64,000 nucleotides of DNA from a virus: IMG/VR virus record IMGVR_UViG_3300044739_000018, positions 64,001-128,000 of that record; one strand, 5' to 3'. Both the position numbers and the translations under genes were made by a program. Positions 13,451-55,524 of this stretch are shown in pieces. Below the pieces are notes generated by a model, which was given only the letters and a program-made list of their open reading frames with translations, was not told the origin of the DNA and made no database searches. The number at the start of each line of letters is the position of its first letter. Position 1 is the first letter of the stretch.

Positions 13451-13482
13451 TGTCTCCCTGTCTCGGGTTGTAACGGTTATAG

Positions 13483-13553
13483 CAGCCCATGGGGGATTCG
13501 AACTCCCGACGCTTGGCTGAGAACCAAGTGTTTTGCCACTAAACTAATGGGCC
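13483..13553 (-). tRNA. tRNA-Glu(CTC)
   Basis: Cloverleaf; anticodon arm CTTGG-TTCTCAG-CCAAG. Confidence 0.9.
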
Positions 13554-13554
13554 T

Positions 13555-13629
13555 TGGGGTGACCACGGAGACTCGAACTCCGCCCTCGGGGACCACAACC
13601 CCGTGTGCTACCGCTAACACTATGGTCAC
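13555..13629 (-). tRNA. tRNA-His(GTG)
   Basis: Cloverleaf; CGGGG-TTGTGGT-CCCCG; C discriminator plus CCA. Confidence 0.9.
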
Positions 13630-21902: not shown

Positions 21903-23953
21903 GGTAAAAAGTCCGTGTATATAGATGGGGGGCAGTAATACTCCCGCGTTGGGAGAGGTAATCCCGGGCATGTTTCGCCCTACGCCTCTCGGGAGCGTTT
22001 CCCGGCATCATGCTTCCCGCCTAGCGCAACCCAAGCGGGCCATGACATAGCCCATCCGTTCAACGGATGTTCCGGATGACTCAAACCATGGACCTATCCC
22101 GGCTAAAAGCTGCCAAACGGTCCACGGACCACACTTCGTGCCCCGTACCTCGGGCTAGAAGCAGTCCATATGGGATCACACGAACCCGGCCGTACTGCTC
22201 ATGGCGCAGCACCATCGGAGAGCCTTGGTGGCGTGCCCGATCCCGCATTGCGGCAGGAAAGGTGCTACCCGAGATCCGGTTTCCCGGCCATAGGCCAACC
22301 CGGAAAAAGGGCACCAAGGATCGCGATGGATCTATGCGTGGACACGCTTGTCCAGCACAGGTTCGCGAACGTGGAGGGTGATTCAATCTGTAGGCGTCTG
22401 TACCCGCCCTCATTGTGCCGTGTACCGTCAGCACCCGAGGATGCGTCAAGCCACTGGTGGAGCGCCCCCCAACGAAGGGCACCCCTACGCACGAGGTGAG
22501 CAGCACGCTCACCCTCCTGTTATGTCCAGGGGCGATCCTGGGCCAAAAGCGCCCGAACCCCTAGTCGTCATGCATGCACCCCAGTCGCTACCCTGTGTGC
22601 ATGCGGGCGTCCTATCCCGGCCGTAGGCCAACGGACGTACCCGTGCATGAGCGTGGATGGTTGTCTGTCCATCCCCCAGCGTGCCCTGTGAGGCATGCTG
22701 GGGCATGTACCCAACCGTGCTAGGTGGTGGCATGTGCCATCCAGGGGGCAGGAGTCGAACCATGCCCGACCGTGCCAGTGCAGTGCTCACCCATGGTGTG
22801 GCCTGCTGGCGCGTCCTATCCCGGCTCTAGGCCAACGGACGTTGTGCGGTCCCACCCTTCTTCATGCAGCATCCCGAGCTGTACTCGGGGTAGGTGCAAG
22901 GGGACGCTACCGATCCCTGAAGGGCACGTGGCACCACCTAGCGGGGACCTATGTACGGGCGCGCCGAAGCCGGGCGCTAGGCCCGGTTCCGGACGGCCGC
23001 CTACTCTCCTTCGGCGCGACTCCACATGGAGCCGTTGTACGTGCGCACCTGTCCACCCCAGACGCGTCCCCACCGCTCGCGCGGCCCGAGTGACGTGCTC
23101 TTTCGGGTAGCCATGAAGTCGAGGTCGGCCTTCGTGCTCAGCCGCGTTGCTGCCTTGGACTCACCGGCGAACGAGTTGCGTGGCGCGAACCGCAATGCCA
23201 GGGGCTGAGCGTTCACGCGTGCCTTCATGGCGCTAACCATGATGCGCACGTAGAACGAGCAGGCTGGATCAGGGCATACGCCACCCGTCCCGTGCCGGTG
23301 CGGCGCAAGGCCGCGCGGAATGAGAGCGAGGGACATAAGATCCTCCTCTTGTTTGGCCGCGTTGAACTAAGGGGACCATCCCCGACCACGGAGCGCGGTC
23401 GTTCAAAGCAGCGGCGGTTGTCTCTCCGCCTCCCGGCGTCGCAGCCGGGCACAGCCCTAGCTTAACCCAGGGCATACGGTAGTGCCAAGGATTCCCAGAT
23501 TTCGCATAAGTGCAGGTCAGAGGCCCGGGGGGGGTCCGGTATGGGCGGAATGTCCGGTTTGAATTGCTTCGCCTGGTATCCCCGTACGCAGCGAAGAAAG
23601 TCAAAAGTCTAGAGTTGACTCTAGGGTTGGCGAGTCTGAGGTCTCGTGAACGGACGTTTTGAGATCTGTTGCCAAGCACCGCAACAGGGCTGACCTGCCC
23701 GGACGCGTTCCGACAGACGCGGCTGAACAGATTTCACAAGCTCACAATCGCCAACGGACGTTCTGTGGAAATCGAACGAGAAATCAGCTAATGGCGATTT
23801 GACAGCCGCGAAGGCGCAGGTCAGGGGTTGTCAAGACCAACAAACTAGTTGGATTTGTCGTTCGATCCTATGCCAACGGACGTTGAAATGGTTTTGTCCA
23901 CTTCTCCTGGAGGAATGCTGGCGTCAGGGAGACCCGGGCTGTATTCTGCTGGG

Positions 23954-24529
23954 ATGTTCGAACGGTTCACTGACAAGGCGCGAAGGATCCTCGTTGTATC
24001 CCAGGAGGAGGCTCGCGAACTCGACCACAACTTCCTCGGAACCGAGCACATCATGTTGGCGATGCTGCACGAGGAAGACACCATCCCTCATGACGTGCTG
24101 GTCACCATGGGTGCCGACTACGAGCAGGCACAGAAGCTCGTCCGAGCAGCCGTGCCCGCGACAGGCGCGAGCGGCCAGGCTCCGTTCACGCCTCGGGCCA
24201 AGAAGGTCTTGGAACTCTCGCTGCGGGAAGCCCTCCAGCTTGGGCATAACTGGATTGGTCCCGAGCACATGATTCTCGCCTTGGTTCGTGAGGGTGACGG
24301 CATCGGTGTTGCCGTGCTGGAGCAGATGGGTCTCGACTGGGGAGTCATTCGCCAGGGCGTGATCGAGGAAGTGGGCAAGAAGCTCCCTCGTATGCCCGCA
24401 GCAAGGACTGTTACGCTGCCCCACGATGAGGCCAAGGAGCTGCGTGAATGGATTCTGCGGTTCGGCGGCTTGGTAAACCCGCTTCCCCATGCTCTGGACG
24501 CTGTATTGCGGCGCCTCAACAACCTTTAA
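23954..24529 (+). CDS. stand-alone Clp N-terminal (double Clp_N) protein
   Basis: MFERFTDKARR..GTEHIMLA and PFTPRAKKVLELSLREALQLGHNWIGPEH match actinobacterial ClpC NTD; no AAA+ domain. Confidence 0.92.
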   Translation: MFERFTDKARRILVVSQEEARELDHNFLGTEHIMLAMLHEEDTIPHDVLVTMGADYEQAQKLVRAAVPATGASGQAPFTPRAKKVLELSLREALQLGHNWIGPEHMILALVREGDGIGVAVLEQMGLDWGVIRQGVIEEVGKKLPRMPAARTVTLPHDEAKELREWILRFGGLVNPLPHALDAVLRRLNNL

Positions 24530-25551: not shown

Positions 25552-27589
25552 GGATAGTCGGCGTGGGCCGGAGAGTTCCGGGTGGACCAGTCGGATGGGA
25601 GGGGTCGAGGCTAGTTGGGTCGGGGTGGGACGGGAAGTCGGTTGGCTCGGTGTGGGGCGAACTGGTTCGTCGGGCGGGGTGGGGCGGGGATGACCAGGCA
25701 TGTCAGGTGGTCCGACGCGGGGAGAAGGGGGCAGGCTGGGTTAGTCGGTAGGGCTGCTGTGGGACGGGGCGGGTAGTCGGCTGGGGACGGGTTGACTGGC
25801 ATAGGCTCGGGAAGTCGGGCAGGCCCGGGTCGGGATGGCGAGGGACGCGACGGGCTGGGGAGCGATGGGTAGGCGGGGGCAGTCGGGATGGGAGCGGGGG
25901 GACGACTCGGCTTGTCGGACAGGTGCGGAAGGGTGCGGTCTGTCGAAGCGAGTGGGGTGCGGGTCGGTGCGACAAGGTTCGTCGTAAGGGGTCGGGCCGC
26001 GCGGGGTCGGGCGGGGAGGGTTGGGTAGTCGGAGCGGGACGAGAGGGTTGGGGGCGCACCGGGGAGGGGCGGGCAGGAACGTCAGTTGGGGCGTGTTGAT
26101 GTGGCTGGGCTTGGATGGTCGGCTTGGATCGAGACGGACGGGGCGGGCAGGGGTCGGCGGGGGTAGTCGTTTGATCAGGGTCGGGTTGCGCTGGGCCGGG
26201 TAGTCGGCTTGGGTCGGGAAGGGTCGGGCGATCTTGGGTCGGCTTGTCACGTGGGAAGCGAAGGCAAGGGGTGGGTAGTCGGAATGGGATGGACAGGACT
26301 GGCCGGAATAAGGTTAGTCACTTGGACAGAGTTGTCCTGGCGAGGGGAGACAAGTCGTATGGGTTGAGACGGCTTGGGATGCAGTCGGCCAGGGACGGGT
26401 CGTCATTCGGGCAGGGGGGATTTGGCATGGCTCGGGCAGTCATGCGTCTTGGGGCGGGTGGCTTCGGGGTGGCATGTCAGATGGGGCGAAAAGGGAGGGA
26501 CGGGTGAGGTCCGGATAGTCGCGCTGGGGCGTGCGGGCACGGGACGGCATGAGTAGTCGCGTAGGTGTGAGACGGGTGGGATAGGCATGGCGTGTCATGC
26601 GGGATGGGTGGACCCGGATGGACGGGGGAGGGGGCGGGTGGGGTTGTCGTAAGGGTCGGCTCGGGAAGGCTTGCCGGGTGATCGGGCGGGCTTGGCTCGG
26701 GAAGTCGTTAGGGCCGGGAGGAGTCGGGGTGGCGAGGGTAGTCGGCCAGGATTGGTCGAGGCCGTGCCGGTATGGACCGGATAGTCGCTCGGGGCGAGAC
26801 GGAGAGCGCCGGGGTGGCATGGGTTGTCGGGGTGGGACGGCTCGGGCGGGGCAGGGTGGGGCCGGATCGGGGGGAGCCGGGCGGTGACGACTCGGGCCGG
26901 GACGGGACGTCGATGCGTGCAGGGACGCGATGGAACGGGGAGGGTAGTCAGGAGGGGATGCGAAGGGTCGGGTTGGGTAGTCGCCAGGGAGGGGGCGTCG
27001 GGGGCAGGGTCGGACGGGGTTGGGTGGTCGAGCAGGGATGCGTTGGATCGGGGAGACCTGGGAAGTCGACCGGACAGGGGCGGGCCGAGGCGCGAAGGGC
27101 TGGGGTCGGGTAGTCGAGAGGGCGGTGACGAGGTGGCTAGGGCGGGATAGTCGCGTGGCGTGGGCCGAGGCGGTACGGGTGGACCCGGGTAGTCAGACGA
27201 CTTGGGGCGGGTGGGACCGGTAAGTCGAAAGAATAGGTCTGACTAGGGAGGGGTAGTCGGATTGATTAGGAGGGCCGCGGCTGGGGGTGGTAAGGGAAGT
27301 CGGTGAGCGCGGGGTTGGGTCGACCAGGGAAGTCAGATGGTAGGGCCAGGGAAGCCGTGACTCGGGACGGGTAGTCGTGCGGGGTGGGTTGAGCTGAGGA
27401 GGCGGGGGTGGGATTGGTTGGTCAGATGGGGCAGGGGATGAAGCGCCGATGGGCTGGGCTGGGCAGGGAAGTCAGATGGGGCGGGTTGGGATGTTGAGAC
27501 GAGACGGGGGCAGGCGGGGGATGTCGGCGGGGGCAGGAGCGGGACGGCGTGGGCAGCGTTGCGACGGATTGGGGAGGGACGGGTAGTCG
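25552..27589. repeat. pentamer-phased non-coding array (about 48 units), candidate guide-RNA array
   Basis: 49 anchors GGNWWGTCR (+); 45 of 48 spacings equal 5n+2 or 5n+3; G at every fifth base within units. Confidence 0.9.
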
Positions 27590-27649: not shown

Positions 27650-27669
27650 GGCTACCCCGAAGGGTAGCC
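27650..27669 (-). terminator. 8-bp hairpin with cUUCGg loop between the RAMP operon and the array
   Basis: GGCTACCC-TTCG-GGGTAGCC on minus strand; terminator or processing signal. Confidence 0.6.
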
Positions 27670-27705
27670 CGTCACGTTCAGCCTTTCAAGAGCAAGTTCT
27701 TTTCC

Positions 27706-27912: not shown

Positions 27913-28100
27913 TCTTCCCTTGCCTTCTCCAGCGTCTGGCCCTCCGACTTGCTGCCGAACCTGCGGGCAGGGTCATCGGGATCGGGGAAGACCCCGCAAC
28001 GACCACACCGCCCGGACCCATGGAATCGCACGATGGGCCAGACGGTGCAGTCGCACGCGATGAAGTCGATCCCGAAATCATCGAGCGGGTACTCGGCCAT
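27888..28100 (-). CDS. small zinc-finger protein
   Basis: ATG overlaps the RAMP stop; CDC...CGRC. Confidence 0.55.
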   Translation of the reverse strand: MAEYPLDDFGIDFIACDCTVWPIVRFHGSGRCGRCGVFPDPDDPARRFGSKSEGQTLEKAREEWQRKRRR

Positions 28101-28756
28101 TACAGCTTGGCCCACTCCACGACGGCGTACCGTCCGTAGCTCTGGCTGCGGGTGGCACCAATGCCCTGCTGCTCGCCGGTGGTCCAGAGATCGGCCCACT
28201 CGTCGTCGGAGAAGTCGAAGTCGCTTCGCACCGAGAACGGCACCTTCGCGTCCTCGACGTACTCCTCGTACTGAATGCCCGTTCCACGGAAGGTGGAGAC
28301 GAACCGCTGCTGGATGCCGGACGGCTCGGTGACGCCCAGGTGCAGGCGATCCTCGATGACGAAGATGTGCTCCGCCACGAATGCCTTCGTGCCCTTGCGG
28401 GTGGGACCCCAGCGGCGGTCAGGCCAGCGGATCGAAGCCGCCTCCTTCAACGCCGCCTTGAGCTGACGGCCCTCGATGTAGAGGCCCTCGTCGTCTCTTT
28501 TGAACCCATTGAGCTTGGTGGTCTTGACGACCTCGTCGATGGCGTCGTCCTTGACCACGCCGCGCTCCAGCATGGTCTTGGTGACCAGCTCAGAGATCAG
28601 CGCCTGGTTGTCGGCACCGAGGGTCTTCTTGATCCAGCCCTCGGCCACCTTGGGGTCGGACGGGATGCCGCCGACCAGGTGATCGACCTGGAGCACGCCG
28701 CCGAAGCGGTTCTTGTAGAGGGCGTCGCGATGCTTCTCGAACACACTGTTTGCCAT
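28100..28756 (-). CDS. stand-alone Cas7/RAMP-like protein
   Basis: LYIEGRQLKAALKEAA (cf. IPGSSLKGALR of Csm3/Cmr4) and C-terminal Gly-rich loop GIGATRSQSYGRY; AAGGAG RBS. Confidence 0.75.
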   Translation of the reverse strand: MANSVFEKHRDALYKNRFGGVLQVDHLVGGIPSDPKVAEGWIKKTLGADNQALISELVTKTMLERGVVKDDAIDEVVKTTKLNGFKRDDEGLYIEGRQLKAALKEAASIRWPDRRWGPTRKGTKAFVAEHIFVIEDRLHLGVTEPSGIQQRFVSTFRGTGIQYEEYVEDAKVPFSVRSDFDFSDDEWADLWTTGEQQGIGATRSQSYGRYAVVEWAKL

Positions 28757-29449: not shown

Positions 29450-30289
29450 TCAGGTGGTCACCGGCTTGGCAACCTTGCTTGCCTTGACGATGGCCTTCTT
29501 CGTGGGCTTGGCACCGCGGAGCCGACCGTGCCGAGTGAAGGGGTCGCGCAGACGGCGACCGGAGTGCTTGTTGATGATCTTGATGAAGCTCCTCGCAAGC
29601 TCGATGTGATTGTTCGATCCGGTGACCGAACGGGTCCGAGCCTGGCTGTCCATCAAGAGGGCGCGCGGGGACTCGTTGCGCAGCGCGTCCGCGACCATGG
29701 ACGTGTCCAGGTCGGGGAAGGCGATGAGCGTCAGGGACAGGCCCTTGAGCACCCGGTCATCGAAGGCAGAGGCGAGGTTCGCCCACGCCGACGTGACGAC
29801 GTTCATCGTGCGCCGGACGGCAGTTGCGCCGCCCCGCTCGTACATCCAGTACATGGCCCGCACGGCACGGATGTTCTTGGCACCCGCGTCATTGCTGAGC
29901 TTGTAGCCGAACGACGTGATGATCTCGTCGATCTCCTTGGCCTTGGCCTCGCCAGCGAACAACTGCGCCCGGTGCCGAGCGGCGGGCGTGATGTTCTTGC
30001 GGCCCTCCTGAGCACGGACGAACAGGCTGGCCTGGTCCTGCGGGGTGTCGGGGCTGATCTGCGCCCAAGCTGTCGTGAAACCGAGGCGACGGAGCGCCTC
30101 CAGCCGGTGCTGACCGTCCCACACCCATGTCGGGGCCGAGTGGTCGTCGTGGGCGATCATCAGAACGCCCAACAGACGCGGGTCGTACTCAGCGACGATC
30201 TTCATGACCCGGCCCTCATCCAGCTCCCGCTGGTAGCCCGGATGCACACGAAGACCGCTGAGCGGAATCTCCTTGTACTGCGTGGTCAT
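29450..30289 (-). CDS. ParB/Srx-like (DGQHR-motif) protein
   Basis: YQRELD...VWDGQHRLEAL...ASLFVRAQ; GGAGGA RBS. Confidence 0.8.
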   Translation of the reverse strand: MTTQYKEIPLSGLRVHPGYQRELDEGRVMKIVAEYDPRLLGVLMIAHDDHSAPTWVWDGQHRLEALRRLGFTTAWAQISPDTPQDQASLFVRAQEGRKNITPAARHRAQLFAGEAKAKEIDEIITSFGYKLSNDAGAKNIRAVRAMYWMYERGGATAVRRTMNVVTSAWANLASAFDDRVLKGLSLTLIAFPDLDTSMVADALRNESPRALLMDSQARTRSVTGSNNHIELARSFIKIINKHSGRRLRDPFTRHGRLRGAKPTKKAIVKASKVAKPVTT

Positions 30290-35828: not shown

Positions 35829-36010
35829 GTCTGAAATCTAAGTGGTGGGTCCACCAGGATTATCCCTTTCGCTGCTCATCCACGTTTGAGGGCTGCGCTC
35901 CACGGTTCAGCTAGCTATCTTGCCGTGGACAGCCTTGACACGCGTACTGCTGCTACTCAGTACCTGGACCTCGGAGATCAACCCGCGGTCTAGTTGAACC
36001 TACAGACCCG

Positions 36011-36083
36011 CGCCCTCCCTCGGATTCGAACCGAGAACCTACGGCGTTAGAAACCGCTGCTCTGCCAGTTGAGCTAGGAAGGC
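36011..36083 (-). tRNA. tRNA with CTA anticodon (amber suppressor)
   Basis: Canonical cloverleaf; GCGGT-TTCTAAC-GCCGT. Confidence 0.85.
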
Positions 36084-36647: not shown

Positions 36648-36719
36648 TGGAGCGCACGGAGGGAATCGAACCCTCGCCCCCGGCCTTTAGAGGGCCTAGA
36701 CCTGACCAACAGCGCGCGC
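36648..36719 (-). tRNA. tRNA(CTA), pyrrolysine-tRNA-like shape
   Basis: GCGCGCG/CGTGCGC-T-CCA; tiny D arm CTG-TTGGT-CAG; loop CTCTAAA; T arm GAGGG-TTCGATT-CCCTC. Confidence 0.75.
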
Positions 36720-44595: not shown

Positions 44596-44678
44596 GGGTC
44601 GGTATGCAAACGGTGAAGCAAGCTGGCTGTAAACCAGTGACGTAAGAGACGTTGGGGGTTCGAATCCCTCCTGGCCCA
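44596..44678 (+). tRNA. tRNA-Tyr(GTA)
   Basis: Cloverleaf with long variable arm. Confidence 0.92.
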
Positions 44679-44803
44679 CAAATCCGACGAGAACCTCGCT
44701 GTTGTGAGACAAACTGTTGTAGCAGGACCGTCCGTGAGCCGGAGGTTATAGGCCCGGACATAGAGGCGGTCTACGCGACCAGGAGGTCACTCATCGGAAG
44801 CAT

Positions 44804-44877
44804 GCTCCACTAACTCAATTGGCTAGAGTACCTGCCTCTTAAGCAGGGAGTTCAGGGTTCGAGTCCCTGGTGGAGTA
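44804..44877 (+). tRNA. tRNA-Lys(CTT)
   Basis: CCTGC-CTCTTAA-GCAGG. Confidence 0.93.
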
Positions 44878-44880
44878 CGA

Positions 44881-44951
44881 GCAGGAAGTTCCGGTTCAAT
44901 TCCGGAGGCCGTGGCGCAAGCCAGGGTTTGGTGTAACGGCAGCACACCTGC
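44881..44951 (+). ncRNA. circularly permuted tRNA-like RNA (YrlA-like), copy 1
   Basis: Order: GCAGG, T arm, acceptor stem capped by GCAA, D arm, CCTGC. Confidence 0.7.
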
Positions 44952-44960
44952 GTTGTTCAC

Positions 44961-45034
44961 GGTCCTATAGATCAGATGGTTAGATCGCTACCCTGTCAAG
45001 GTAGAGGCCGCGGGTTCGAGTCCCGTTAGGACCG
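44961..45034 (+). tRNA. tRNA-Asp(GTC)
   Basis: CTACC-CTGTCAA-GGTAG. Confidence 0.93.
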
Positions 45035-45295
45035 CGCAAGTAATGGTGAAGCTGAACTGAAGCTCGCAGAGGGAACTGGACTGTGAATCCAGGGCCACCA
45101 GTCTGGAACGAGCCGAAGGAATGCCCAAGCCTTGCTCCGCCAGTCGTCGGCCGACTGACATGCCTGTGATGACATATTGGGCTTCATGCCCTCGGGACCA
45201 CCAGCGATAGCCGATGGGCGTCCTAAGCTGATGTGCCGAAATACCCGCCCAACTTCTTCGGGAGTTGGGATTGCGCCTTGAAGCGCAGCAGTCTA

Positions 45296-45370
45296 GTCTC
45301 GATGGTGAAATGGAGATCATTGCGGTCTACGAAACCGCCGTTAGAGGTTCGAATCCTCTTCGAGACGCCA
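45296..45370 (+). tRNA. tRNA-Arg(ACG)
   Basis: GCGGT-CTACGAA-ACCGC; CCA. Confidence 0.92.
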
Positions 45371-45376
45371 CCACAC

Positions 45377-45453
45377 GTCGATGTAGCTCAGCCGGACAGA
45401 GCGCGGGCCTCCGAAGCCCGAGGCCAGAGGTTCGAACCCTCTCATCGACGCCA
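45377..45453 (+). tRNA. tRNA-Arg(CCG)
   Basis: CGGGC-CTCCGAA-GCCCG; CCA. Confidence 0.93.
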
Positions 45454-45842
45454 TGAAGATCCAAGGTTGGCTCGACTGGTTCCGCGAGCACGCTTTGCCC
45501 AGGGACACGTTCATCGAGAAGGTGACCGACCACGTGGGCAACGTCAGCCGGACCCGTGAAACCAAGATCAAGGTTCCTCGCCGTGCCCGCATGGACGAGA
45601 TCGACAAGCTCCTGGCTGCGGCCAAGGGCGTGAAGCTCGATACCGAGATCATCGTTCCGGCCCATGCCGTGGCTGCGGAGGGGGCGACAACGACGATTCA
45701 GATGAATTGCGCTGACTGCAACGAACGTTGCAACGGAAGCGTGAAGACTTCCTGGCTCACCAGTCAGGCAGCAGGAGATCTAGTGAGGTGGCAGTGCGCC
45801 AAGTGCGGACTGGAGCAGTTTTGCAGTATCACGCCGCAGTAG
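45453..45842 (+). CDS. hypothetical zinc-ribbon protein
   Basis: CADC...CAKC; ORF between tRNAs. Confidence 0.6.
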   Translation: MKIQGWLDWFREHALPRDTFIEKVTDHVGNVSRTRETKIKVPRRARMDEIDKLLAAAKGVKLDTEIIVPAHAVAAEGATTTIQMNCADCNERCNGSVKTSWLTSQAAGDLVRWQCAKCGLEQFCSITPQ

Positions 45843-45905
45843 CGTCAACGGTTAGCGCGCGTCCTTGGTACGGACGAAGTTCAGGTTCGATTCCTGACTG
45901 TGGCT
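45833..45905 (+). tRNA. tRNA-Thr(GGT)
   Basis: CGTCC-TTGGTAC-GGACG. Confidence 0.9.
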
Positions 45906-46038
45906 CTCGGAGTGTCGGGTACCAGTGATGGCCCGAAGCGACCTGCCCCCAAAGTACCGGTTGAGGGGACGGTTGTATCGAGCACTCCTATCCCGGGTGG
46001 TGGCGGGCTGGTAGCTCCAGCCCGCTGCTTCCCATCAC

Positions 46039-46110
46039 GTCTCTGTAGTTCAAAGGAAAGAACACGAGTTTCCTAAACTTGCGATGGGGGTTCGAGTCCT
46101 CCCAGAGACG
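46039..46110 (+). tRNA. tRNA-Arg(CCT)
   Basis: CGAGT-TTCCTAA-ACTTG. Confidence 0.92.
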
Positions 46111-46423
46111 CTCAAGCCAGTGGATGCCATCATGCCGTTGGAAGGGAACATCCGGCTGCGTAGTAGCCGTCCTGAAAGACGTTCGTGCGGGCATCGGCGG
46201 GTTCGACCCCCGTAGCTTCCACAACGAGGGAGCTTGCTGCCGGTGCAGCCCTGGCACATTGTATTTCGAGCGGATAGTGCCGATCTTTAGGTGAGCAGAT
46301 CACCCCAGACCCTGGTGATTGGACTGGGGAATCTGTGCGCTATCGACACTACGAACTCAAGACGATCTTCATGGTTGCCTTTGTGGCCTTCGTAGTCATC
46401 AACCTCGTAATGGTGGTGGCTAT

Positions 46424-46834
46424 ATGAGCGGTGAAACCGAACAGCAGGTCAGTGGGTGGACAGTTGACACCCTGAATGAGCACCTCCAGCGCATCATTGA
46501 TGAGAAGCTGGCAGCTCAGGACGTGCTTATTACGGAGCGCGACCGCCGTTACGAACAACGCTTTGAGGCCCAAGAGAAGGCCATCCAGAAGGCGGAAACC
46601 GCGACCGAGAAGCGGTTCGAATCGGTCAACGAGTTCCGATCCGTGCTTTCGGACCAGACGAGGAGCTTCCTCCCTCGTGAAGAGTACAATCGTGCTCACA
46701 CAGATCTGGCTAGCCGGTTGGATGAGGCGACCAAGAGTACCAACGAGAAGTTGGAACAGGCCGTGAAGACCCTTGAGAGTCGCATTGCCTCTCTCCAGCA
46801 GCAGCTCAACGCCGTCGAAGCGGTGGTGAAGTAA
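46424..46834 (+). CDS. coiled-coil hypothetical protein
   Basis: Heptad-rich; followed by two TM-bearing ORFs (46834-47052, 47049-47393). Confidence 0.65.
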   Translation: MSGETEQQVSGWTVDTLNEHLQRIIDEKLAAQDVLITERDRRYEQRFEAQEKAIQKAETATEKRFESVNEFRSVLSDQTRSFLPREEYNRAHTDLASRLDEATKSTNEKLEQAVKTLESRIASLQQQLNAVEAVVK

Positions 46835-47594
46835 TGCCCGTCGTGACCTTGGGGACGCTGGCCGAGAAGCTGATCGCTGCCCAGACTGGCATTGACCAGA
46901 TCCAGGTAGAACTCAGGAAGGTCAACGAGCAAGCTCTTGACCGGCGAGTCTCCAAGCTGGAAGACACCGTAAAGTTCTTGAGCCGCACAGTCGCCGCCAC
47001 GCTCATTTCGGCCATAGGGTCGGCCATCCTCGCGGTGGTGATGTCCCGATGAACGAAAAAATGGATGAGACAAAGGCGGACTCCCGCTTCAATGGAGTGC
47101 GTGTCCTCGTCACCGCCATCATTGTCGGCGTATTGGCCGTGGCGGTATTCGTGTCGGCCAGCCTCCTGACGAGAGTGCCGAAGAACGCTCAGGATCTCCG
47201 AGAGCGGTGCGTGTCATCAAACCTGGCGATCCAGCAGTTCAACACCAAGTTCTCGCAGTTGGTTGACTTGTTCGACCAGTCGCTGGCAAACCCGGACCCG
47301 AACAGGCCACCGCCGTCGCCGGAGGTCCTTGCTCTTTACGCCGAGTTCAAAAAGCCCGTCCCTCTCATCAAGTGCGAGGACGACGGCCGCTAAGTTTTCG
47401 TGAACCCAAGCTCAGTAGGCAGAGTAGCCTTCAGGGGCCGGAGGTCGTGGGTGGGATTCCCACCGAGTCCATCATGAGTCGTCACTCGGGTGTAGCGCCG
47501 CCAGGCTGCCTACAGTGACGGTTCATCGTGGGGTCGTAGCTCAGTACCCAGAGCACCGTCTGGAACCTACGAAAGTGCGGGTAACACAACACCT

Positions 47595-47677
47595 GGAGAG
47601 ATACCCAAGTGGTGAAGGGGACGGTTTGCTAAACCGTTAGGTCGAAAGGCGCGTGGGTTCGAACCCCACTCTCTCCG
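47595..47677 (+). tRNA. tRNA-Ser(GCT)
   Basis: ACGGT-TTGCTAA-ACCGT; long variable arm. Confidence 0.93.
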
Positions 47678-47755
47678 CGCTGGTGGGTATGCGGACTATA
47701 GGCGTGCATGCGCGCTTGGTCGTCCCGGCGCCGGGATGGCTGCCCACCGGATTCT

Positions 47756-48023
47756 TGAGATAGCCGGGTGACCGCGGCACGACTTGATCGTGTCGAGGAA
47801 GGTCGGGACTCCACAGGACGAGGGAGCCAACGAGAGTTGGGCGGGCGTGAGCTTGCGGCTCTGCAACAGAGACGAGCCGGTTAAGTCCGGGTGAAACGGG
47901 CAACCCCCTGGAGCAACTTCATACAGAGGTCGCTGGTCCGGCGATAACCTCGGGTAGAAGGCTTAGATGGATGGTCACCGCGCTACATGCTGGCGTACAG
48001 AATCCCGCCTACAAGCTATCTCA
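47756..48023 (+). ncRNA. rnpB: RNase P RNA (compact)
   Basis: P1 TGAGATAGC/GCTATCTCA; CR-I GAGGAAGGTCGGGA pairing with CR-V ACAGAATCCCGCCTAC; GCAACAGAGA and GGGTGAAACGG elements. Confidence 0.9.
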
Positions 48024-48030
48024 GTATCTC

Positions 48031-48117
48031 GGAGCGATGGCAGAGTCTGGTTGATTGCACCTGCCTTGAAAGCAGACGTGGGGTAACTCACCGGGGGTTC
48101 GAATCCCTCTCGCTCCG
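48031..48117 (+). tRNA. tRNA-Ser(TGA)
   Basis: CTGC-CTTGAAA-GCAG; long variable arm. Confidence 0.92.
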
Positions 48118-48272
48118 CTCGCCAACGTTCGTTGGCAAACCCGTACTCATTCCTAGTACCGCTACGCAATGTTAGTCCTCGTAACTATCCGCCTGGCTGA
48201 CCTGCGGTTTTAACGTCCTCCCACCTGTTCAAACGTGTGGCCGGTACTAGACATGAGTACATGACTCACCTC

Positions 48273-48356
48273 GGAAGGCATCCGAATTGGAGAGGAACCC
48301 GCCTCGAAAGCGGGCACGGTGTAACAGCCTTGTGGGTTCGAGTCCCACGCCTTCCG
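48273..48356 (+). tRNA. tRNA-Ser(CGA)
   Basis: CCCGC-CTCGAAA-GCGGG. Confidence 0.92.
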
Positions 48357-48385
48357 CTTTGACAACCCGATGTGACAGAGCAGTC

Positions 48386-48456
48386 TGTATCGTAGCTCAG
48401 TTGGATAGAGCGCCGCCCACAAGGCGGAGGTCGCAGGTTCGAGTCCTGCCGAACAC
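48386..48456 (+). pseudogene. tRNA-like gene with 5-nt anticodon loop
   Basis: Intact D and T arms; CCGCC-CACAA-GGCGG; bulged acceptor stem. Confidence 0.65.
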
Positions 48457-48492
48457 TGGAACTCTCGAATGTGCGGGCGAGTCAATAACCTC

Positions 48493-48838
48493 GGGGCTGA
48501 CAGGTTTCGACGGTGCAAGTGAAGCTAGGAGTGCGACCGGTCTTGGGCAGAGACCTAAAACGGCCTACCAAAAACAAACGACAACGACATCGTTGCCGAG
48601 GCAGAGGCCGTCCTGGCTTCTGCTGCTCTCGCTACTGTCTGACAGTAGCTTGCGGGGAAGCCCATCCTTGAGATCCAAACGGGCATGTGACATGACTCTC
48701 AGGAAAGACTGAGTGGCGCTCCGTGAAATGCGGGCTGACAGCCGGAAAGACGGCACACTGGCCCGACAGTAAACGGGAATGGTCGTATCACAAGTAGTGA
48801 ATCTGCAACGGACGTGGGTTCGAATCCCACCAGCTCCA
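48493..48838 (+). ncRNA. ssrA: tmRNA; tag (A)DNDIVAEAEAVLASAALATV*
   Basis: 5' GGGGCTGACAGGTTTCGAC; 3' GGACGTGGGTTCGAATCCCACCAGCTCCA; G3-U wobble; tag ORF 48580-48642. Confidence 0.93.
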
Positions 48839-48840
48839 CG

Positions 48841-49058
48841 TGTATGCGCAACGAAAGGTTGGCTTAGAGGCAGCCATCCTATAATGAGTGGGGTAACGGT
48901 CCATCTTGGCAGTAGCTGGGGTGGACCTCCGGGCAATACCGTTGGAGACAGCGAGTACGTCCGGGATCAGGTACGTGGGGACTAGCCTGCCCATCGGTAA
49001 CCGCTTTCTCCGTTCCTCGGAACCGCCCTTTGGCGTAATAGCACATCCTTGCGTGACA
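48841..49058 (+). ncRNA. candidate 23S rRNA L11-binding-domain (H43/H44) mimic with internal insertion
   Basis: AGGTTGGCTTAGAGGCAGCCATCCTATAATGAGT ... GCGTAATAGCACA, closed by TGCGCAA/TTGCGTG. Confidence 0.65.
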
Positions 49059-49063
49059 CACCT

Positions 49064-49146
49064 GGAGAGGACCCGAACGGTCAGGAGCCTCGTTGGAAGC
49101 GAGGTACGGGTGCAAGCCCTAGTGGGTTCGACCCCCACCCTCTCCG
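49064..49146 (+). tRNA. tRNA-Ser(GGA)
   Basis: CCTCG-TTGGAAG-CGAGG. Confidence 0.9.
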
Positions 49147-49509
49147 CTCCACATAGCGGGACGACAACTAATCGCGTTACAGGAAGTCGTTCTGCACGAC
49201 CAAGGAGGTGAGTGAAGGTTATCAGCACCTACATCCGGTGGCATCAAGCTTCCGTTTGGAGCCTTCTCTCACACCGCAACCTGATCTGAAAGTGGTACGA
49301 CCGGCCCGACAAGAGGCTACCCTCCTCAGCGTCCCGCCTCCCTGGCTCGGTGCCCGCATGCGTGCGGGCTTACCTGCGGTGTGATTCCTCAGGTGAGAGT
49401 GGTCGTGAATCCACGTGATTTGACGGTAAGCCAACGCTCGTTGCAGTGAGAACGTGGCTTCGCAGGAACAAGATGTCGGAATGCTGAACTGGCCGTGACG
49501 GTGCAGTCG

Positions 49510-49580
49510 TTGGGATTCGTATATCGGTAGTACACCCGGCTTTGAACCGGGTGGAGTGGGTTCGACTCCCGCATCCCCCC
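49510..49580 (+). tRNA. tRNA-Gln(TTG), weak acceptor end
   Basis: CCCGG-CTTTGAA-CCGGG. Confidence 0.75.
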
Positions 49581-49629
49581 TTGAACGGAGACTGAAACAC
49601 CTGATCCAAAGGTAACAGCGTTCCATCAT

Positions 49630-49703
49630 GCCCCCATCGTTTATGGGTAGGACATCAGCCTTTCAAGCTGATAGACAGGGTTCGAGTCCCTGTGGGGGTA
49701 CCA
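49630..49703 (+). tRNA. tRNA-Glu(TTC)
   Basis: TCAGC-CTTTCAA-GCTGA; CCA. Confidence 0.93.
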
Positions 49704-49704
49704 A

Positions 49705-49775
49705 GGCGCATTAGTTTAGTGGGAAAACAACTGGTTCTCAGCCAGTCGTCAGGAGTTCGATCCTCCTATGCGCTA
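49705..49775 (+). tRNA. tRNA-Glu(CTC)
   Basis: ACTGG-TTCTCAG-CCAGT. Confidence 0.92.
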
Positions 49776-50053
49776 CTCATAGCAACGGCTCCGTGGCTCC
49801 TCCATCGGTACACCCGATGAGAGGGGGTGAACGTGCCCAAGTATCACAGAGTAACGGGAGCCACCCGCTGCTATGTCTGCGGCCAGCGTCTGACGCTGAC
49901 CGACTATGACGACGGCGATGAGGTCATCGCTAGTCACATAGACAAGACTCACATGAGAGTCATCAAGGCTCTCATTCGTTTCGCCCGCTCCTAGCTGGCG
50001 GCCCGGCGACACCTGCCGTAAGTGGTGTGACGTGGGGGAGAGACCTCATCCAT

Positions 50054-50130
50054 TGCCGGGTAGCTCAGATAGGCAGAGCAGCCGCCTGTTAAGCGGAAGC
50101 GCGTGGGTTCGATCCCCACCCTGGCAGCCA
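50054..50130 (+). tRNA. tRNA-Asn(GTT)
   Basis: CCGC-CTGTTAA-GCGG; CCA. Confidence 0.93.
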
Positions 50131-50131
50131 T

Positions 50132-50206
50132 GGGACGATAGCCAAGTGGTAAGGCGACGGATTGCAACCCCGTCATTCGTCGGTTCGATTCCGACTCGTC
50201 CCTCCA
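50132..50206 (+). tRNA. tRNA-Cys(GCA)
   Basis: Loop TTGCAAC; T discriminator plus CCA. Confidence 0.92.
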
Positions 50207-50359
50207 TGTGATACAGAACCCGATCCTGACCTAGCAGGAGCAGTCGCCGCGGGGTCCCCCATGTATCCACAAACTGAGAGATACTATTCAGAATGTGGAT
50301 AGATGGGGTCCTCCGGTGGAGGACTGAAACTGGTGATGGTAGGGTAACTGTCTCAACTT

Positions 50360-50432
50360 GTGCGTGTAGCTCAACTGGCAGAGCACGACGTTGCCAACGT
50401 CGAGGTCGAGGGTTCGAACCCCTTCACGCACT
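50360..50432 (+). tRNA. tRNA-Gly(GCC)
   Basis: CGACG-TTGCCAA-CGTCG. Confidence 0.93.
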
Positions 50433-50437
50433 CGCAT

Positions 50438-50510
50438 GCGGGAGTGATGTCAACGGTTAGCATCTCTGCCTTCCAAGCAGATCGTGCCGGTTCGAATCCG
50501 GTCTCCCGTT
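50438..50510 (+). tRNA. tRNA-Gly(TCC)
   Basis: TCTGC-CTTCCAA-GCAGA. Confidence 0.92.
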
Positions 50511-50511
50511 C

Positions 50512-50540
50512 TTGACGCTGGCACCGGCGTGTCATAAAAT
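50512..50540 (+). promoter_or_regulatory. near-consensus sigma70-type promoter
   Basis: TTGACG-17 nt-TAAAAT. Confidence 0.75.
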
Positions 50541-50685
50541 GGGCGTTGGCGGAGAAGCCTACGGGGCGACTCCGAGTGTAATCCGATCAGTCGAACCTCA
50601 GCCTCACGGTGAAGGCCCACTACTTACTCAAAGCCGGAACCTAAAGGCGGGCACCGTAATCGGGTTGCCGCGCAAAGAAAGTACC

Positions 50686-50711
50686 GAGAAGGGGCCGCAA
50701 GGCCCCTTCTC
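50686..50711 (+). terminator. terminator-like hairpin
   Basis: GAGAAGGGGCC-GCAA-GGCCCCTTCTC. Confidence 0.65.
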
Positions 50712-50715
50712 ACTA

Positions 50716-50790
50716 GCCTTCGTGATGTCAACGGCAGCATTCCTGTCTTGTAAACAGGTCGTGGCGGTTCGAATCCGTCCGGAGGCTCCA
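50716..50790 (+). tRNA. tRNA-Thr(TGT)
   Basis: CCTGT-CTTGTAA-ACAGG; CCA. Confidence 0.92.
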
Positions 50791-50927
50791 AGCAGTTGTG
50801 ATGAAGCAGCATGTAAGCCGCCTGGCGGTGGAAACTCGCGGTCCGAATCTCAGGCTGGCAGAAATGCCAAGGGAACGGTGGCACTGGGAGCCGTTGGGGT
50901 GTTGGAACTTCTTGAATGACTGCTCAT

Positions 50928-51002
50928 GGTTCAGTAGCTCAGACTGGTTAGAGCGTCCGGTTGAAACCCGGGAGGTCGTCCGTTCGATCCGGACCTGAAC
51001 CA
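50928..51002 (+). tRNA. tRNA-Phe(GAA)
   Basis: TCCGG-TTGAAAC-CCGGG. Confidence 0.92.
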
Positions 51003-51606
51003 CGCCGATAGAGTCTCATGGCTTCTATCACCATCACCATCCCCGATGCTCAGGTTCAACGAGTGTTGGACGCCTTCAGCCATCGTTACGGCTACCAAGA
51101 CCAGATTGACGGCGCACCAAACCCTCAAACGAAGGTCCAGTTCGCCAAGCAGCAGGTGGCACTCTGGATCAAGCGAGAGACCGAGGACTACGAGCGGGCA
51201 ATCCGAATCGCAGCAGCCGAGGCGGCTGCCATTGCACTCGACGCCACCTGACGTAGAATCAGACCATGTGTGGTGGAGGGAAGTGCAACCCCGATCCTCA
51301 GGTCGCCGCCAGCTTCCACCGCCTGGAGGAGCAGCGTCTGGCTGACATCGAGCGGTGGGGCCAGTGCGAGGAGATCAGCTACCGCAACAAACGGTGCCAC
51401 TACCCAATCGGTCACGACCGCGGGCACCATGCCGGTGACGGAATCACCTGGGCAACGGACGTTGAACATGAGGGCGGCCAGGCGGCAGAGCTGAAGAAGT
51501 TGTTCGAGACGTGCAAGACGATCATCCCCGGCATCGAGCTGCCCGCATGGGTGGAGTTCCAGGCCGACTTGTCTCACCTGGGCTTTCTGCTGGGGATCAA
51601 GAACGA

Positions 51607-51678
51607 GGACGCGTAACTCAGAGGCAGAGTGCCAGGACGACACCCTGGTGGTCATTGGTTCGAATCCAATCGTGTCCA
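51607..51678 (+). tRNA. tRNA-Val(GAC)
   Basis: CCAGG-ACGACAC-CCTGG. Confidence 0.9.
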
Positions 51679-51896
51679 CGCAGCAAAATGCCAACTCAAG
51701 TTGAAGAGGCACCCATACCGAGAGCACATCGTCTTCATAAGACGCCCTGTGCGGATTAAGAGTTTACCAACGGTAGGCTGCTACATCATTGTGTCGATGT
51801 AGTTTGATCAGGACCCTCGGGGCAGGTAGCGCACTCGGCAGATAACCGGGGAGGCGGCCATGGTGGAACCTTGGAAACACGAGCCAAGCACTGCGG

Positions 51897-51966
51897 TGCC
51901 GTGTGATTTGGTAATCAAGGCTGGCTTATATCCAGCCCCTCTCGGGTTCGACTCCCGGCGCGGCTA
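51897..51966 (+). tRNA. tRNA-Ile(TAT), atypical
   Basis: GGCTGG-CTTATAT-CCAGCC; short D loop. Confidence 0.7.
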
Positions 51967-52045
51967 CGTCATGACCTACCTCCGAGAGTTCTCCACAGTG
52001 AGTGGGTAGTGTCGGCAGGAAAACTCGGCTGACTGTCGGCCACTT

Positions 52046-52120
52046 GCGTAACAAGCCAACTAGGTTGGAGGCGCTACCCTGATAAGGTAGATATGCGAGG
52101 TTCGAATCCTCGGTTACGCA
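52046..52120 (+). tRNA. tRNA-Ile(GAT)
   Basis: CTACC-CTGATAA-GGTAG. Confidence 0.9.
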
Positions 52121-52262
52121 CTCAGAAATACGACTGATGCAGCAATAGAAACAGCGACCAGGAGGGGCCTGAAACCCCTTCGGCCTGCCGAGGTCAGCAT
52201 GCGGCTCTTAACCGCCTCGCCCCTCTCTGCTGAAACTGTTGAAGGCGTATCAACTGAAGCAA

Positions 52263-52335
52263 GCCTCTCTGGCGTAATGGATAGCGTGTCGGCCTTTTAA
52301 GCCGGTCGGTCAGGGTTCGAATCCCTGGGGGGGCA
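52263..52335 (+). tRNA. tRNA-Lys(TTT)
   Basis: TCGGC-CTTTTAA-GCCGG. Confidence 0.92.
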
Positions 52336-52343
52336 CTTTTCAT

Positions 52344-52419
52344 AGGCGGGTAGCTCAGAGGCCAGAGCAGCACCCTTACAAGGTGAAGTGCGAGGGTTCG
52401 ACTCCCTCTCCGCCTACCA
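52344..52419 (+). tRNA. tRNA-Val(TAC)
   Basis: CACC-CTTACAA-GGTG; CCA. Confidence 0.93.
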
Positions 52420-52420
52420 T

Positions 52421-52498
52421 GGTGGCCGTAGCTCAGTTGGTTAGAGCGCCAGGTTGTGATCCTGGATGTCGGGGGTTCGAGTCCCCTCGGTCACCCCA
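52421..52498 (+). tRNA. tRNA-His(GTG)
   Basis: G-1; CCAGG-TTGTGAT-CCTGG; C discriminator plus CCA. Confidence 0.95.
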
Positions 52499-53097
52499 TG
52501 AGCACCAAAGTCAAAGAGATCACGTCGAATCCCAACGGGGACCGGCGACGGTGCCAGCTCTGCAATCCAACCCCTGACCGAATTCCACTGGACAAGGTGT
52601 GGGCCTGGTCGCTAGAACATCCAGGAGAACCTTGGAGGCGAAGTGGCTGAGACCCTGACGGACGTTTCCCAGCACTACCGGGAGCGGGCAGAAGTCAGCA
52701 TGTACTGGTGGGACGAGGACGACGAGGTTGCCATGGAGATCGTGCAGGACGCCATGAAGAACCTCATGTTCGCCTTCAAGCGGGCAGGAGTACGAGTACC
52801 GGCCCTGCACGTCACGGGCAGGAAGTAATGGGCGACCCGTTCCGCTGTGGACGTTGCGACACGTGGTTCGACTACTACGAGGCCCTGGAGCGGCACATCG
52901 CGAAGGAGCATCCCAAGCCCTCGGACAAGTCGGTCCTCGCCACCATGCAGTATGAATTGAAGGAGGCGCTGCTTGAAATCCAGCGGCATCATGCCGACTT
53001 CAAGAAGGTCAGTCAGGCCCTCGACGACTACGAGGAGCATGGCGATGCGAAATTGCTTTACAAGACGGTCAGGAGCGTTGTAGGATGATTCCCACGT

Positions 53098-53170
53098 TGC
53101 GGTGGGAGGGGACGGAGACCCTGTCAGGCTCATAACCTGGACTATGCGAGTTCGATTCTCGCCGCCGCTA
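53098..53170 (+). tRNA. tRNA-Met(CAT) with 1:72 mismatch
   Basis: TCAGG-CTCATAA-CCTGG. Confidence 0.85.
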
Positions 53171-53194
53171 CTAAGCAGTACAGCTTAACCTCTT

Positions 53195-53270
53195 GCCGGG
53201 AGGGTGAAACGGTTTCCACGGGGGCCTCATAAGCCTCAGACATGCGGTTCGACTCCGCTTCCCGCCACCA
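53195..53270 (+). tRNA. tRNA(CAT), Met or Ile2
   Basis: GGGGC-CTCATAA-GCCTC; ACCA end. Confidence 0.8.
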
Positions 53271-53428
53271 TCTAAGGGACGCCTCCAAGGAGGTGAGTCC
53301 GATGTAGCAGCAACAACTAACATGCGAAGACACTCAACGGAGTGCCAGGAGTAACTCGGTAACACGGGCGCTGCTCCACAGGTCAATCGGGAGGCCAGGC
53401 CCCGCAAGTCGGGGCCGCTCCAATTCTT

Positions 53429-53504
53429 GGGGACGAAGCTCAGCAGGTTGAGCATCTGTCTGGCAGACAGAAGGTCGAGGGTTCGAATCCCTTCGTCTCC
53501 ACCA
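53429..53504 (+). tRNA. tRNA-Ala(GGC)
   Basis: G3-U70; TCTGT-CTGGCAG-ACAGA; CCA. Confidence 0.93.
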
Positions 53505-53964
53505 TCATGGCATCAGCAACCGAAGGCAAAATCGACGTAGAGGTTACGCACGCATTCTGTATTGACCGTGCAGTCAAGACCTTGAAGTCGGTCTACAAGG
53601 CGGGTTTGAGTGCCGAGATCATCGAGCACACGCTGGCAACAGTGGACCGCTGGTTGAAGATTGCCGCAGAGATCCGAGCGGGTGACGAGCTTGCTAGCTA
53701 CAAGTTCAACGCCCTGAAGAGGCAGTTGGAAGAGGAGAGTATGTAGTACGAACTCGGTGCGGACGTGATTCCGCCACTGCCTTCTGCCAACGCCTGGGCC
53801 GAACCGTGACGAACGGTGACTGCAAGGGAAGGTGCCGACATGGGAACTCCGGCCGGGTTACCTGTGAGCGGATAGAGGGGTCAGTGAAGAAATGACCCGA
53901 TAGGGGAACGCTGTGCCGCGGAGGCGGCGGTCCCTTTCTTATCCATCCTTTATCTCCGCAACAC

Positions 53965-54037
53965 GGGCCTGTAGCTCCAACGGTAGAGCAACTGCTTTGC
54001 AAGCAGAGGGTTGTCGGTTCGAATCCGACCTGGTCCA
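53965..54037 (+). tRNA. tRNA-Ala(TGC)
   Basis: G3-U70; CTGC-TTTGCAA-GCAG. Confidence 0.93.
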
Positions 54038-54042
54038 CGCAA

Positions 54043-54125
54043 GGGCGAGTGGCGTAATTGGCAGCCGCGCTGGTCTTAGGAACCAGTGTCTATATGACGT
54101 GCGGGTTCGAGTCCCGCCTTGCCCA
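54043..54125 (+). tRNA. tRNA-Leu(TAG)
   Basis: CTGGT-CTTAGGA-ACCAG; long variable arm. Confidence 0.93.
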
Positions 54126-54407
54126 CGTGACGGCACGAGCAGGAACAGCAAGGAAGTCCACCGGAGCGGTAGCCAAGGGAGCCACTCGGCGGATATCAGT
54201 AGCTCGCACGGGAGGGTATCCGTGTGGCTTCTGTGGTGGCGGGAAACCGAACGGGCAGCGGTACTGTGCCCAGTGCATTGACGAGTATGCCGACTTCATG
54301 GAAGTCACTGGCATCGACGAGTCACCGCACAGTGCCGACCTCTACAAGCTCTATCGCTTCATGTCTATGAAGGATGAAGTCGAGCGCATCAAAGAGAAGT
54401 ACAGCTA

Positions 54408-54485
54408 GCTGACGTAGCCCAATCCGGCAGAGGCACATGGTTCAGAACCATGCCAGTGGAGGTTCGAGTCCTCTCGTCAGCACCA
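54408..54485 (+). tRNA. tRNA-Leu(CAG), short variable loop
   Basis: CATGG-TTCAGAA-CCATG; CCA. Confidence 0.9.
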
Positions 54486-54486
54486 A

Positions 54487-54562
54487 GCCTCTGTAGTGCT
54501 AATGGTTATCACGTCGGTTTCGTAAACCGAAGGACTCAGTTCGACTCTGAGCAGAGGCTCCA
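54487..54562 (+). tRNA. tRNA-Thr(CGT)
   Basis: TCGGT-TTCGTAA-ACCGA; CCA. Confidence 0.9.
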
Positions 54563-54563
54563 C

Positions 54564-54646
54564 GCGAACGTGGCGGAATGGTATACGCGCTAGGTCGAGA
54601 GCCTAGTGCCCGCAAGGGATTGAGGGTTCGACTCCCTCCGTTCGCA
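54564..54646 (+). tRNA. tRNA-Leu(GAG)
   Basis: CTAGG-TCGAGAG-CCTAG; long variable arm. Confidence 0.92.
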
Positions 54647-54961
54647 CAAATCGTTGACCCGCTCGCCCTCCAATGTTAGGGTCAGGTTCAACTGAACCTC
54701 AAGACCATGGAGGCGGCGGTGGACGAGTACGTGGCGCTGTTCTGCCCGCACTGCGGCGTGCATCTCAACGAGGTTGAGACGGACGACGAGACCCTGGTTG
54801 CCCTCACTCCTGAGCCTGGGACCAGTGTGAAGTGCGGCCACTGTGGTATCGAGACCGACGACTGGAACCACATCGTCCAGTGCCGTCGCACGCTTGGCGC
54901 TGTGGGGGAGCTTCGGTTCCGTCAGGCGGCTGAGCGTCTTGCCGCTCTGGAGCAAGAGCTT

Positions 54962-55031
54962 GCCCTCGGCACGGAAGCTACGCGGGCCTTCTAAGCCTGT
55001 GGACCGGGTTCGATTCCTGGCGGGGGTGCCA
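54962..55031 (+). tRNA. tRNA-Arg(TCT) lacking a paired D arm
   Basis: GCCCTCG/CGGGGGT-G-CCA; CGGGC-CTTCTAA-GCCTG; T arm intact. Confidence 0.75.
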
Positions 55032-55440: not shown

Positions 55441-55511
55441 CGGGTCGAGTTGTTACGGAAGCATCCGGGGTTTGGAACCCCGTGGCCGGGGTTCGACTCC
55501 CTGCGACCCGA
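55441..55511 (+). tRNA. tRNA-Pro(TGG)
   Basis: CGGGG-TTTGGAA-CCCCG. Confidence 0.88.
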
Positions 55512-55524
55512 CGTAGTAATGCAA

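Follow-up and report, generated by a model that had tools for sequence, protein, structure and literature searches.

Array and neighbouring genes

We investigated a 64,000-nucleotide (nt) stretch of a soil phage (the window; positions 64,001 to 128,000 of the IMG/VR virus record IMGVR_UViG_3300044739_000018), in which a long array with a 5-nt period lies beside a lone gene for a RAMP protein. The virus record is complete (163 kb with terminal repeats) and includes a WhiB gene; the phage probably infects actinobacteria. Tyrosine integrase, Vsr and Cas1 were not found in the complete 163-kb genome. An earlier note on this DNA had pointed to viral RAMP systems named VIPR, and these systems do exist (bioRxiv 10.64898/2026.04.26.720920). 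VIPR is a CRISPR relative for RNA-guided DNA silencing, first published in 2026, and consists of Vipr, vap and vrRNA, type II being that of Escherichia phage SUSP1 (PDB 36pp; bioRxiv 10.64898/2026.04.26.720920,.720927). Published Vipr proteins number 670, and types I-VII are told apart by the phylogeny of Vipr and by the vap gene.

Our own parse of the array gave 49 anchors and 48 units, all of them unique, in agreement with the previous description of about 48 non-identical units. The unit lengths are 28, 32/33, 37/38, 39, 42/43, 47/48, 50, 52/53, 58, 63, 68 and 83 nt. Forty-five of the 48 lengths equal 5n+2 (24 units) or 5n+3 (21 units), and the remaining three are 39 (twice) and 50 (once), which reproduces the earlier count and set of spacings. 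The base-identity autocorrelation of the tract, for which a peak at 5 had been predicted, reaches z=8.9 at lag 5 and z=9.0 at lag 10, with negative values at lags 2-3 and secondary peaks at 32/33 and 37/38. The GC skew is near +0.5, and no second extended tract of this kind occurs in the whole 163-kb genome.

Two details of the previous description had to be revised. The triplet, which had been called near-constant, is graded: the plus-strand pentamer reads G 96%, G 76%, G 59%, N, N, and an exact GGG is found in 144 of the 307 pentamers. The 49 anchor positions stand, but the proposed pattern GGNWWGTCR fits only 34 of them in its strict form. The actual anchor consists of GTCR (minus strand: YGAC), preceded by an ordinary pentamer whose variable dinucleotide (NN) is A/T-biased. 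The Y of YGAC is the final base of the preceding pentamer; thus, each unit can be written, to within one base, as GAC(NN-xxC)m. Adjoining units abut with a phase shift and have no structured tail, and A and T strongly predominate in the NN directly behind GAC (TA, AA, TT or AT in 59% of the units). We obtained no match for the array in Rfam, no similar DNA in GenBank phages and no hit in a scan for E. coli-type promoters inside the array, and the C-strand segments folded no better than shuffles. One-base slips of the pentamer phase are seen inside the units at 27425-27474, 26358-26405, 25946-25984 and 26282-26320, which are possibly decayed guides.

The end of the RAMP-like gene at 28100 is 511 nt from the array, beyond a cUUCGg hairpin, as had been noticed before (about 500 nt). 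This hairpin might serve as an operator or mark where the upstream transcript ends; a comparable promoter within a palindrome precedes the arrays of the related loci L087 and L091. The candidate promoter here points into the C-rich strand, 71 nt ahead of the first anchor. Read-through on the C-rich strand would be expected, because the ribosome-binding site of a 153-residue open reading frame (ORF) directly follows the last anchor. The accessory protein of 173 residues matches phrog_4604 weakly and otherwise uncharacterised viral clusters, and its tblastn homologs sit upstream of the RAMP gene in about 20 loci.

The RAMP protein

We then investigated the ORF at 28100-28756. It has no match in Pfam or PHROGs; 1329 relatives were found. 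In all structure searches with models of the protein (predicted local distance difference test, pLDDT, 77 and 91), the top matches were Csm3/Cas7-type RAMPs, with Z scores of 10-11.5, in line with the Cas7/RAMP-like identity suggested earlier. The protein is thus modelled as a stand-alone RAMP with RRM, thumb and G-loop, encoded outside a CRISPR locus. In SUSP1 Vipr, D177 and W178 read two guanines, and R179 helps to hold the third base, a pyrimidine (bioRxiv.720927). The family in the window has A-[ST]-R at these three positions (G-loop G-I-G-A-[ST]-R, against G-V-G-D-W-R in SUSP1), so that the GG-reading pair is replaced and the arginine is retained.

Related loci and the guide strand

Comparison with related phages, which the earlier note had recommended, revealed the same kind of array beside the RAMP gene in about 35 loci. 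These come from viral contigs as well as from genomes of Streptomyces, Nocardiopsis, Streptosporangium and others. Their 621 units share one profile on the gene strand (N, N, C54, C71, C92; anchor YGAC), and every array starts and finishes with an anchor. Whether an array is upstream or downstream, its C-rich strand coincides with the gene strand; the exceptions are additional divergent arrays in L027 and L028. In 10 loci the upstream accessory (vap) gene ends on the TGA of the first anchor, which serves as its stop codon, and the ribosome-binding site of the RAMP gene adjoins the last anchor. Of 42 arrays, 8 have an actinobacterial-type promoter pattern directed at the C-rich strand and 1 has such a pattern facing the G-rich strand (background 1.5%); three promoter-like sites end 6-7 nt ahead of the first anchor. 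The GGY strand of SUSP1 is likewise the gene strand. The strand had been left open in the earlier note, which had considered a distinct, non-GGY variant. The gene-strand geometry, the stop-codon overlap, the promoter direction and the loss of the GG-reading residues lead us to infer that the guides are most probably written on the minus, C-rich strand as GAC(NN-xxC)m, and the variant reads NN-C54-C71-C92 on the gene strand.

A locus identical to that of the window is present in the assembly of SRR24887413. Several of the related loci have features of their own. L027 and L028 contain two arrays each, one of which is on the opposite strand and reads away from the RAMP gene, and each of both arrays has its own promoter-like site. 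In the isolated phage Mae-JY09 (L092, GenBank PP395641; recorded host Microcystis), a RAMP gene with 34% identity is followed by a 10-unit C-rich array, making this phage a possible experimental model. A distant homolog of 330 residues in L156 (1830-4327) is followed by a C-rich array of more than 2.3 kb that is partly miscalled as a gene of 397 residues; an array stretch is similarly miscalled in L087.

Statistics of the dinucleotides

The pooled NN strings fit a mixture in which codon positions 1-2 account for 0.46 in sense and 0.37 in antisense, and the other frames for 0.02. The units differ along this sense/antisense axis beyond permutations (z 5.5), but other frames also reach z 3-4 in this permutation test, which is therefore unspecific on its own. 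TA is depleted inside NN (0.53) and not across the NN junction (0.90), which argues against a skip of zero. The junction patterns agree with a skip of one base (r 0.68-0.73), as compared with 0.27, -0.63 and 0.22 for skips of 0, 2 and 3. Between homologous units of different phages, NN is kept at 85-100% and the triplets at 20-75%. The NN code therefore appears, from these sequence statistics, to follow the 1-nt skip of VIPR and to read codon positions 1-2, the wobble base being skipped. Self-matches of the guides in the phage's own genome are at chance level.

Decoded targets

We treated every NN as two of the three bases of a codon, which gives degenerate peptides. Six units of the window, chosen by eye, were searched as gapped patterns, and the same patterns reversed served as controls. 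Two of these units decode to the His...Tyr motif of tyrosine integrases. Unit 27527-27589 gave 7 matches in 401 actinobacterial genomes (at most 3 mismatches in 24 bases) and unit 25818-25885 gave 3 (at most 3 mismatches in 26 bases), with 0 for both controls, and all 10 matches are in frame on this motif. The former guide is complementary to the integrase coding strand. Scores from an integrase profile are partly circular, since the profile was built from the matches; the integrase reading thus rests on the unbiased genome searches. Unit 27378-27424 decodes to a Vsr endonuclease motif and gave 14 usable matches in 201 genomes (control 0), 13 of which carry the motif. Six of these 13 adjoin a C5 methylase, and others adjoin restriction-type, AIPR, HerA or AAA genes. 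L028 holds a similar unit.

The first half of the longest unit (26830-26912) gave 52 viral seed matches, nine of them within one DNA-methyltransferase family, phrog_498, to which the guide is in sense orientation. The best methyltransferase match agrees at 25-26 of 32 bases, where 20 is typical. The second half gave 9 seed matches, none of which extends well. Unit 27475-27526, tried as a GHKL-ATPase guide, had 6 matches (control 0), only one of which is a GHKL ATPase, and unit 26522-26559 had 0 matches in 151 genomes. Two matches, from the unpublished genomes G093/L079 and G053/L084, were excluded from all further analysis, and without them the Vsr count is 14 and the GHKL count is 5. One unit, common to four related phages (L006:4575, L015:4405, L016:4740 and L039:4728), reads as the ImmA/IrrE motif HExxH and gave four genomic matches on it, one of them exact, against 2 for the control. 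The idea that the dinucleotides spell a gapped target is thus borne out by the codon-phase fit, the skip-1 junction statistics and the integrase, Vsr and methyltransferase matches, and the gap is one base. Two short units of the window were also read in this way: 27196-27227 resembles the start of an integrase motif (L-G-H-A-N-V), and 27117-27153 a helix-turn-helix motif.

Table 1. Array, units and neighbouring features in the window
Feature	Position	Strand	Remark
Putative guide array	25552..27589	minus	48 units, GAC then 5-16 pentamers NN-xxC (median 7)
Integrase-motif unit	27527..27589	minus	G-H-A-T-V-Q-[FL]-T-[FL]-D-T-Y; tyrosine-integrase catalytic motif
Integrase-motif unit	25818..25885	minus	H-P-S-I-[DE]-T-T-L-D-I-Y-G-H; tyrosine-integrase motif
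Vsr-motif unit	27378..27424	minus	A-V-F-L-D-G-C-F-W; conserved Vsr endonuclease motif
Longest unit, 16 NN	26830..26912	minus	first 10 dinucleotides match DNA-methyltransferase family phrog_498
Unit resembling GHKL-ATPase box	27475..27526	minus	mixed matches
Unit common to window and related phage L087	26522..26559	minus	NN 14/14 identical, triplets 4/6
Vipr-like RAMP gene, 218 aa	28100..28756	minus	G-loop G-I-G-A-[ST]-R
Two small ORFs, 70 and 68 aa	27706..28100	minus	between RAMP gene and array
Hairpin with cUUCGg loop	27650..27669	minus	overlaps -10 box
Candidate sigma-A promoter	27661..27689	minus	TTGAAA, 17 nt, TACCCT; pattern match only
Conserved accessory (vap-like) gene, 173 aa	28778..29299	minus	tblastn homologs in ~20 loci
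ParB-like DUF6551 gene	29450..30289	minus	upstream only in this phage and closest relative
ORF of 153 aa	25082..25551	minus	ribosome-binding site directly after last anchor

Comparison with known systems

The locus shares with the SUSP1 VIPR a lone phage RAMP of about 200 residues, a small accessory gene in a minimal viral locus, pentamer repeats, an NN code with a 1-nt skip at the wobble base, targets on both strands and the lack of self-targets. The differences are considerable. The triplet is xxC on the presumed RNA strand instead of GGY, and the canonical YNNGG pattern is absent, as neither strand has a pyrimidine after GG. Type II guides have 9-16 repeats and a conserved structured 3' tail, and SUSP1 has four of them, whereas the window has 48 abutting, tail-less guides of 5-16 NN with a GAC start motif that differs from SUSP1. 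The G-loop lacks D177 and W178, sequence similarity to SUSP1 Vipr is weak, and the accessory gene is unrelated. Overall, the locus probably works like VIPR, and its new features are the non-GGY triplet, the missing tail, the GAC-punctuated array of 48 guides and the altered G-loop.

Other reported arrays come closer in form. Staggered vrRNA arrays and NNNGG, YNNNG and NNNNG variants have been presented (fig. S17-S18 of bioRxiv 10.64898/2026.04.26.720920). They resemble the window in their abutting guides with a register shift, and the reverse complement of the window fits NNNGG. However, the published arrays have 1-nt overlaps and G-based motifs, and a C-rich class is not named in the text of that work; the clade of the window may be included in the fig. 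S17-S18 set on the other strand. Non-canonical arrays of the GAC/NN, CAC/NN, WGT/NN and TGH/NN types with Vipr-like neighbours (bioRxiv 10.64898/2026.10.21.760802) have the same 5-nt period and triplets ending in C, but that text does not name CCC and gives no decoding, strand argument or targets. The vrRNA4 of SUSP1 was shown by experiment to be aimed at the active site of a satellite recombinase (bioRxiv 10.64898/2026.10.15.759431). Like the guides here, it lies on codons of a recombinase catalytic region and skips the wobble base. The satellite recombinase is of the serine type, whereas our in silico targets are tyrosine integrases, Vsr and a methyltransferase (and ImmA in relatives). Targeting of host defence is not reported in that study, and the decoded targets, a possible anti-defence guide included, are what this locus adds beyond published VIPR. 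Class 1 CRISPR-Cas (Csm3/Cas7) has the RAMP fold and G-loop in common with the window, which differs in having a non-contiguous code and no identical repeat-spacer array, cas1 or cas operon.

Proposed mechanism and alternatives

We conclude that the locus is very probably a VIPR-type system, carried by a large phage that lacks integrase, with C-rich guides and a 1-nt-skip DNA code, for the silencing of rival genes. The minus (C-rich) strand of the array would be transcribed, and RAMP subunits would polymerise on the guide RNA, one on each pentamer, gripping the xxC triplet and presenting NN. Consecutive NN would pair with double-stranded DNA, each third target base being skipped, so that the guides would read codon positions 1-2 of either strand and ignore wobble changes. 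GAC would mark the guide start and reset the register. The bound filaments could then keep rival prophages and integrative elements (through integrase, and through ImmA/IrrE in relatives), rival-phage methyltransferases and probably defence islands (vsr) from being transcribed. By analogy, binding and silencing most likely proceed as in SUSP1 VIPR. The anchor is plausible as a processing handle, and GAC may be a cut site or merely a register reset.

Several results weigh against this interpretation. An HHalign comparison with SUSP1 Vipr was weak (128 columns, E 0.0015, probability 17%), and a profile search did not match PDB 36pp. Gap models of 0-3 nt, as proposed earlier, were supported for a skip of one by the junction statistics, but a search with all guides against 1 Mb of loci and the phage's own genome gave no excess over shuffles at any of the skips 0-3. 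Exact scans with the decoded guides of the window found 0 matches in viral contigs and 0 in metagenomes, and a Streptomyces prophage guide had 0 matches in 401 genomes of its own genus. The target matches are at the family level, on conserved motifs at 78-94% in unrelated genomes, and units of 5-6 NN hold just 10-12 bases of specificity. Among the six units picked by eye, 26522-26559 failed and 27475-27526 was mixed; the other 42 units are undecoded.

Other readings of the same array were weighed as well. One of them keeps the array uncut, as one long RNA with many phase-shifted filaments on which GAC serves just for nucleation or to set the register. Such an uncut array would modify the VIPR-type explanation and leave the code unaffected. 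It would agree with the lack of a Cas6-like gene nearby, of a ribozyme or Rfam match and of a tail, and with arrays often lying within the vap-vipr mRNA. We nevertheless regard it as rather unlikely, as the staggered arrays in the literature are depicted as being processed into single guides and each array here has an anchor at both ends. A G-rich guide on the plus strand (GGN/NN), that is, the published NNNGG variant expressed from an antisense promoter, is unlikely. Canonical Vipr binds GG, the reverse complement of the array fits NNNGG, and the target matches, being strand-symmetric, do not discriminate between the strands. However, the operon geometry, the stop-codon overlap, the promoter direction and the lost GG-reading residues all oppose this strand, SUSP1's GGY strand is the gene strand, and a purine would occupy the pocket that excludes purines in SUSP1.

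It is very unlikely that the complex targets RNA, like its nearest solved structural relatives, Csm3 and type VII Cas7, even though the best fold matches are RNA-targeting RAMPs and the C-rich-strand guides for integrase, Vsr and ImmA are antisense to mRNA. About half of the units, the methyltransferase guide included, fit the sense orientation, and sense guides cannot pair with mRNA; SUSP1 VIPR, in addition, requires a DNA third strand for full assembly. DNA is thus the presumed target, because guides occur in both sense and antisense. A low-complexity or G-quadruplex-forming repeat without guide function, to which the strong G skew and the many GGG runs might point, is hardly conceivable: it is contradicted by the linkage to a single gene family, the codon-phase statistics and the in-frame catalytic motifs.

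Implications

A separate class of C-rich, tail-less VIPR, with its own triplet readout, GAC-punctuated polycistronic arrays, silencing of whole families through conserved motifs and anti-defence against vsr islands, can be proposed only tentatively, at less than even confidence. If true, one guide would silence an entire gene family by reading codon positions 1-2 in enzyme motifs that are widely conserved, and phages would possess an RNA-guided anti-defence against host restriction-modification islands (vsr), which is not reported in the VIPR papers. The gapped code of VIPR would have survived a full swap of the scaffold triplet, and the protein loop responsible for reading that triplet would have changed to match. 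The system would also offer an orthogonal, very compact programmable DNA binder with tail-less guides of about 35 nt. Since degenerate peptides can be derived from the guides, the enemies of the phage might be listed from the array even without sequenced target genomes. Forty-eight guides without Cas1 make the origin (writing) of VIPR guides a testable question, and the same array class is present in cultured hosts (Streptomyces and Nocardiopsis prophages) and in one phage isolate.

Other features of the window

About 38 tRNA genes are clustered at 44596-57834 on the plus strand, together with a tmRNA (48493-48839), and two further tRNAs are found at 13482-13629. Two tRNA-like genes on the minus strand (36010-36083 and 36648-36717), the first of which looks well-formed, have the called anticodon CUA (amber-reading) and are possible suppressor tRNAs. 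A phage gene at 23849-24529 encodes Clp amino-terminal domains.
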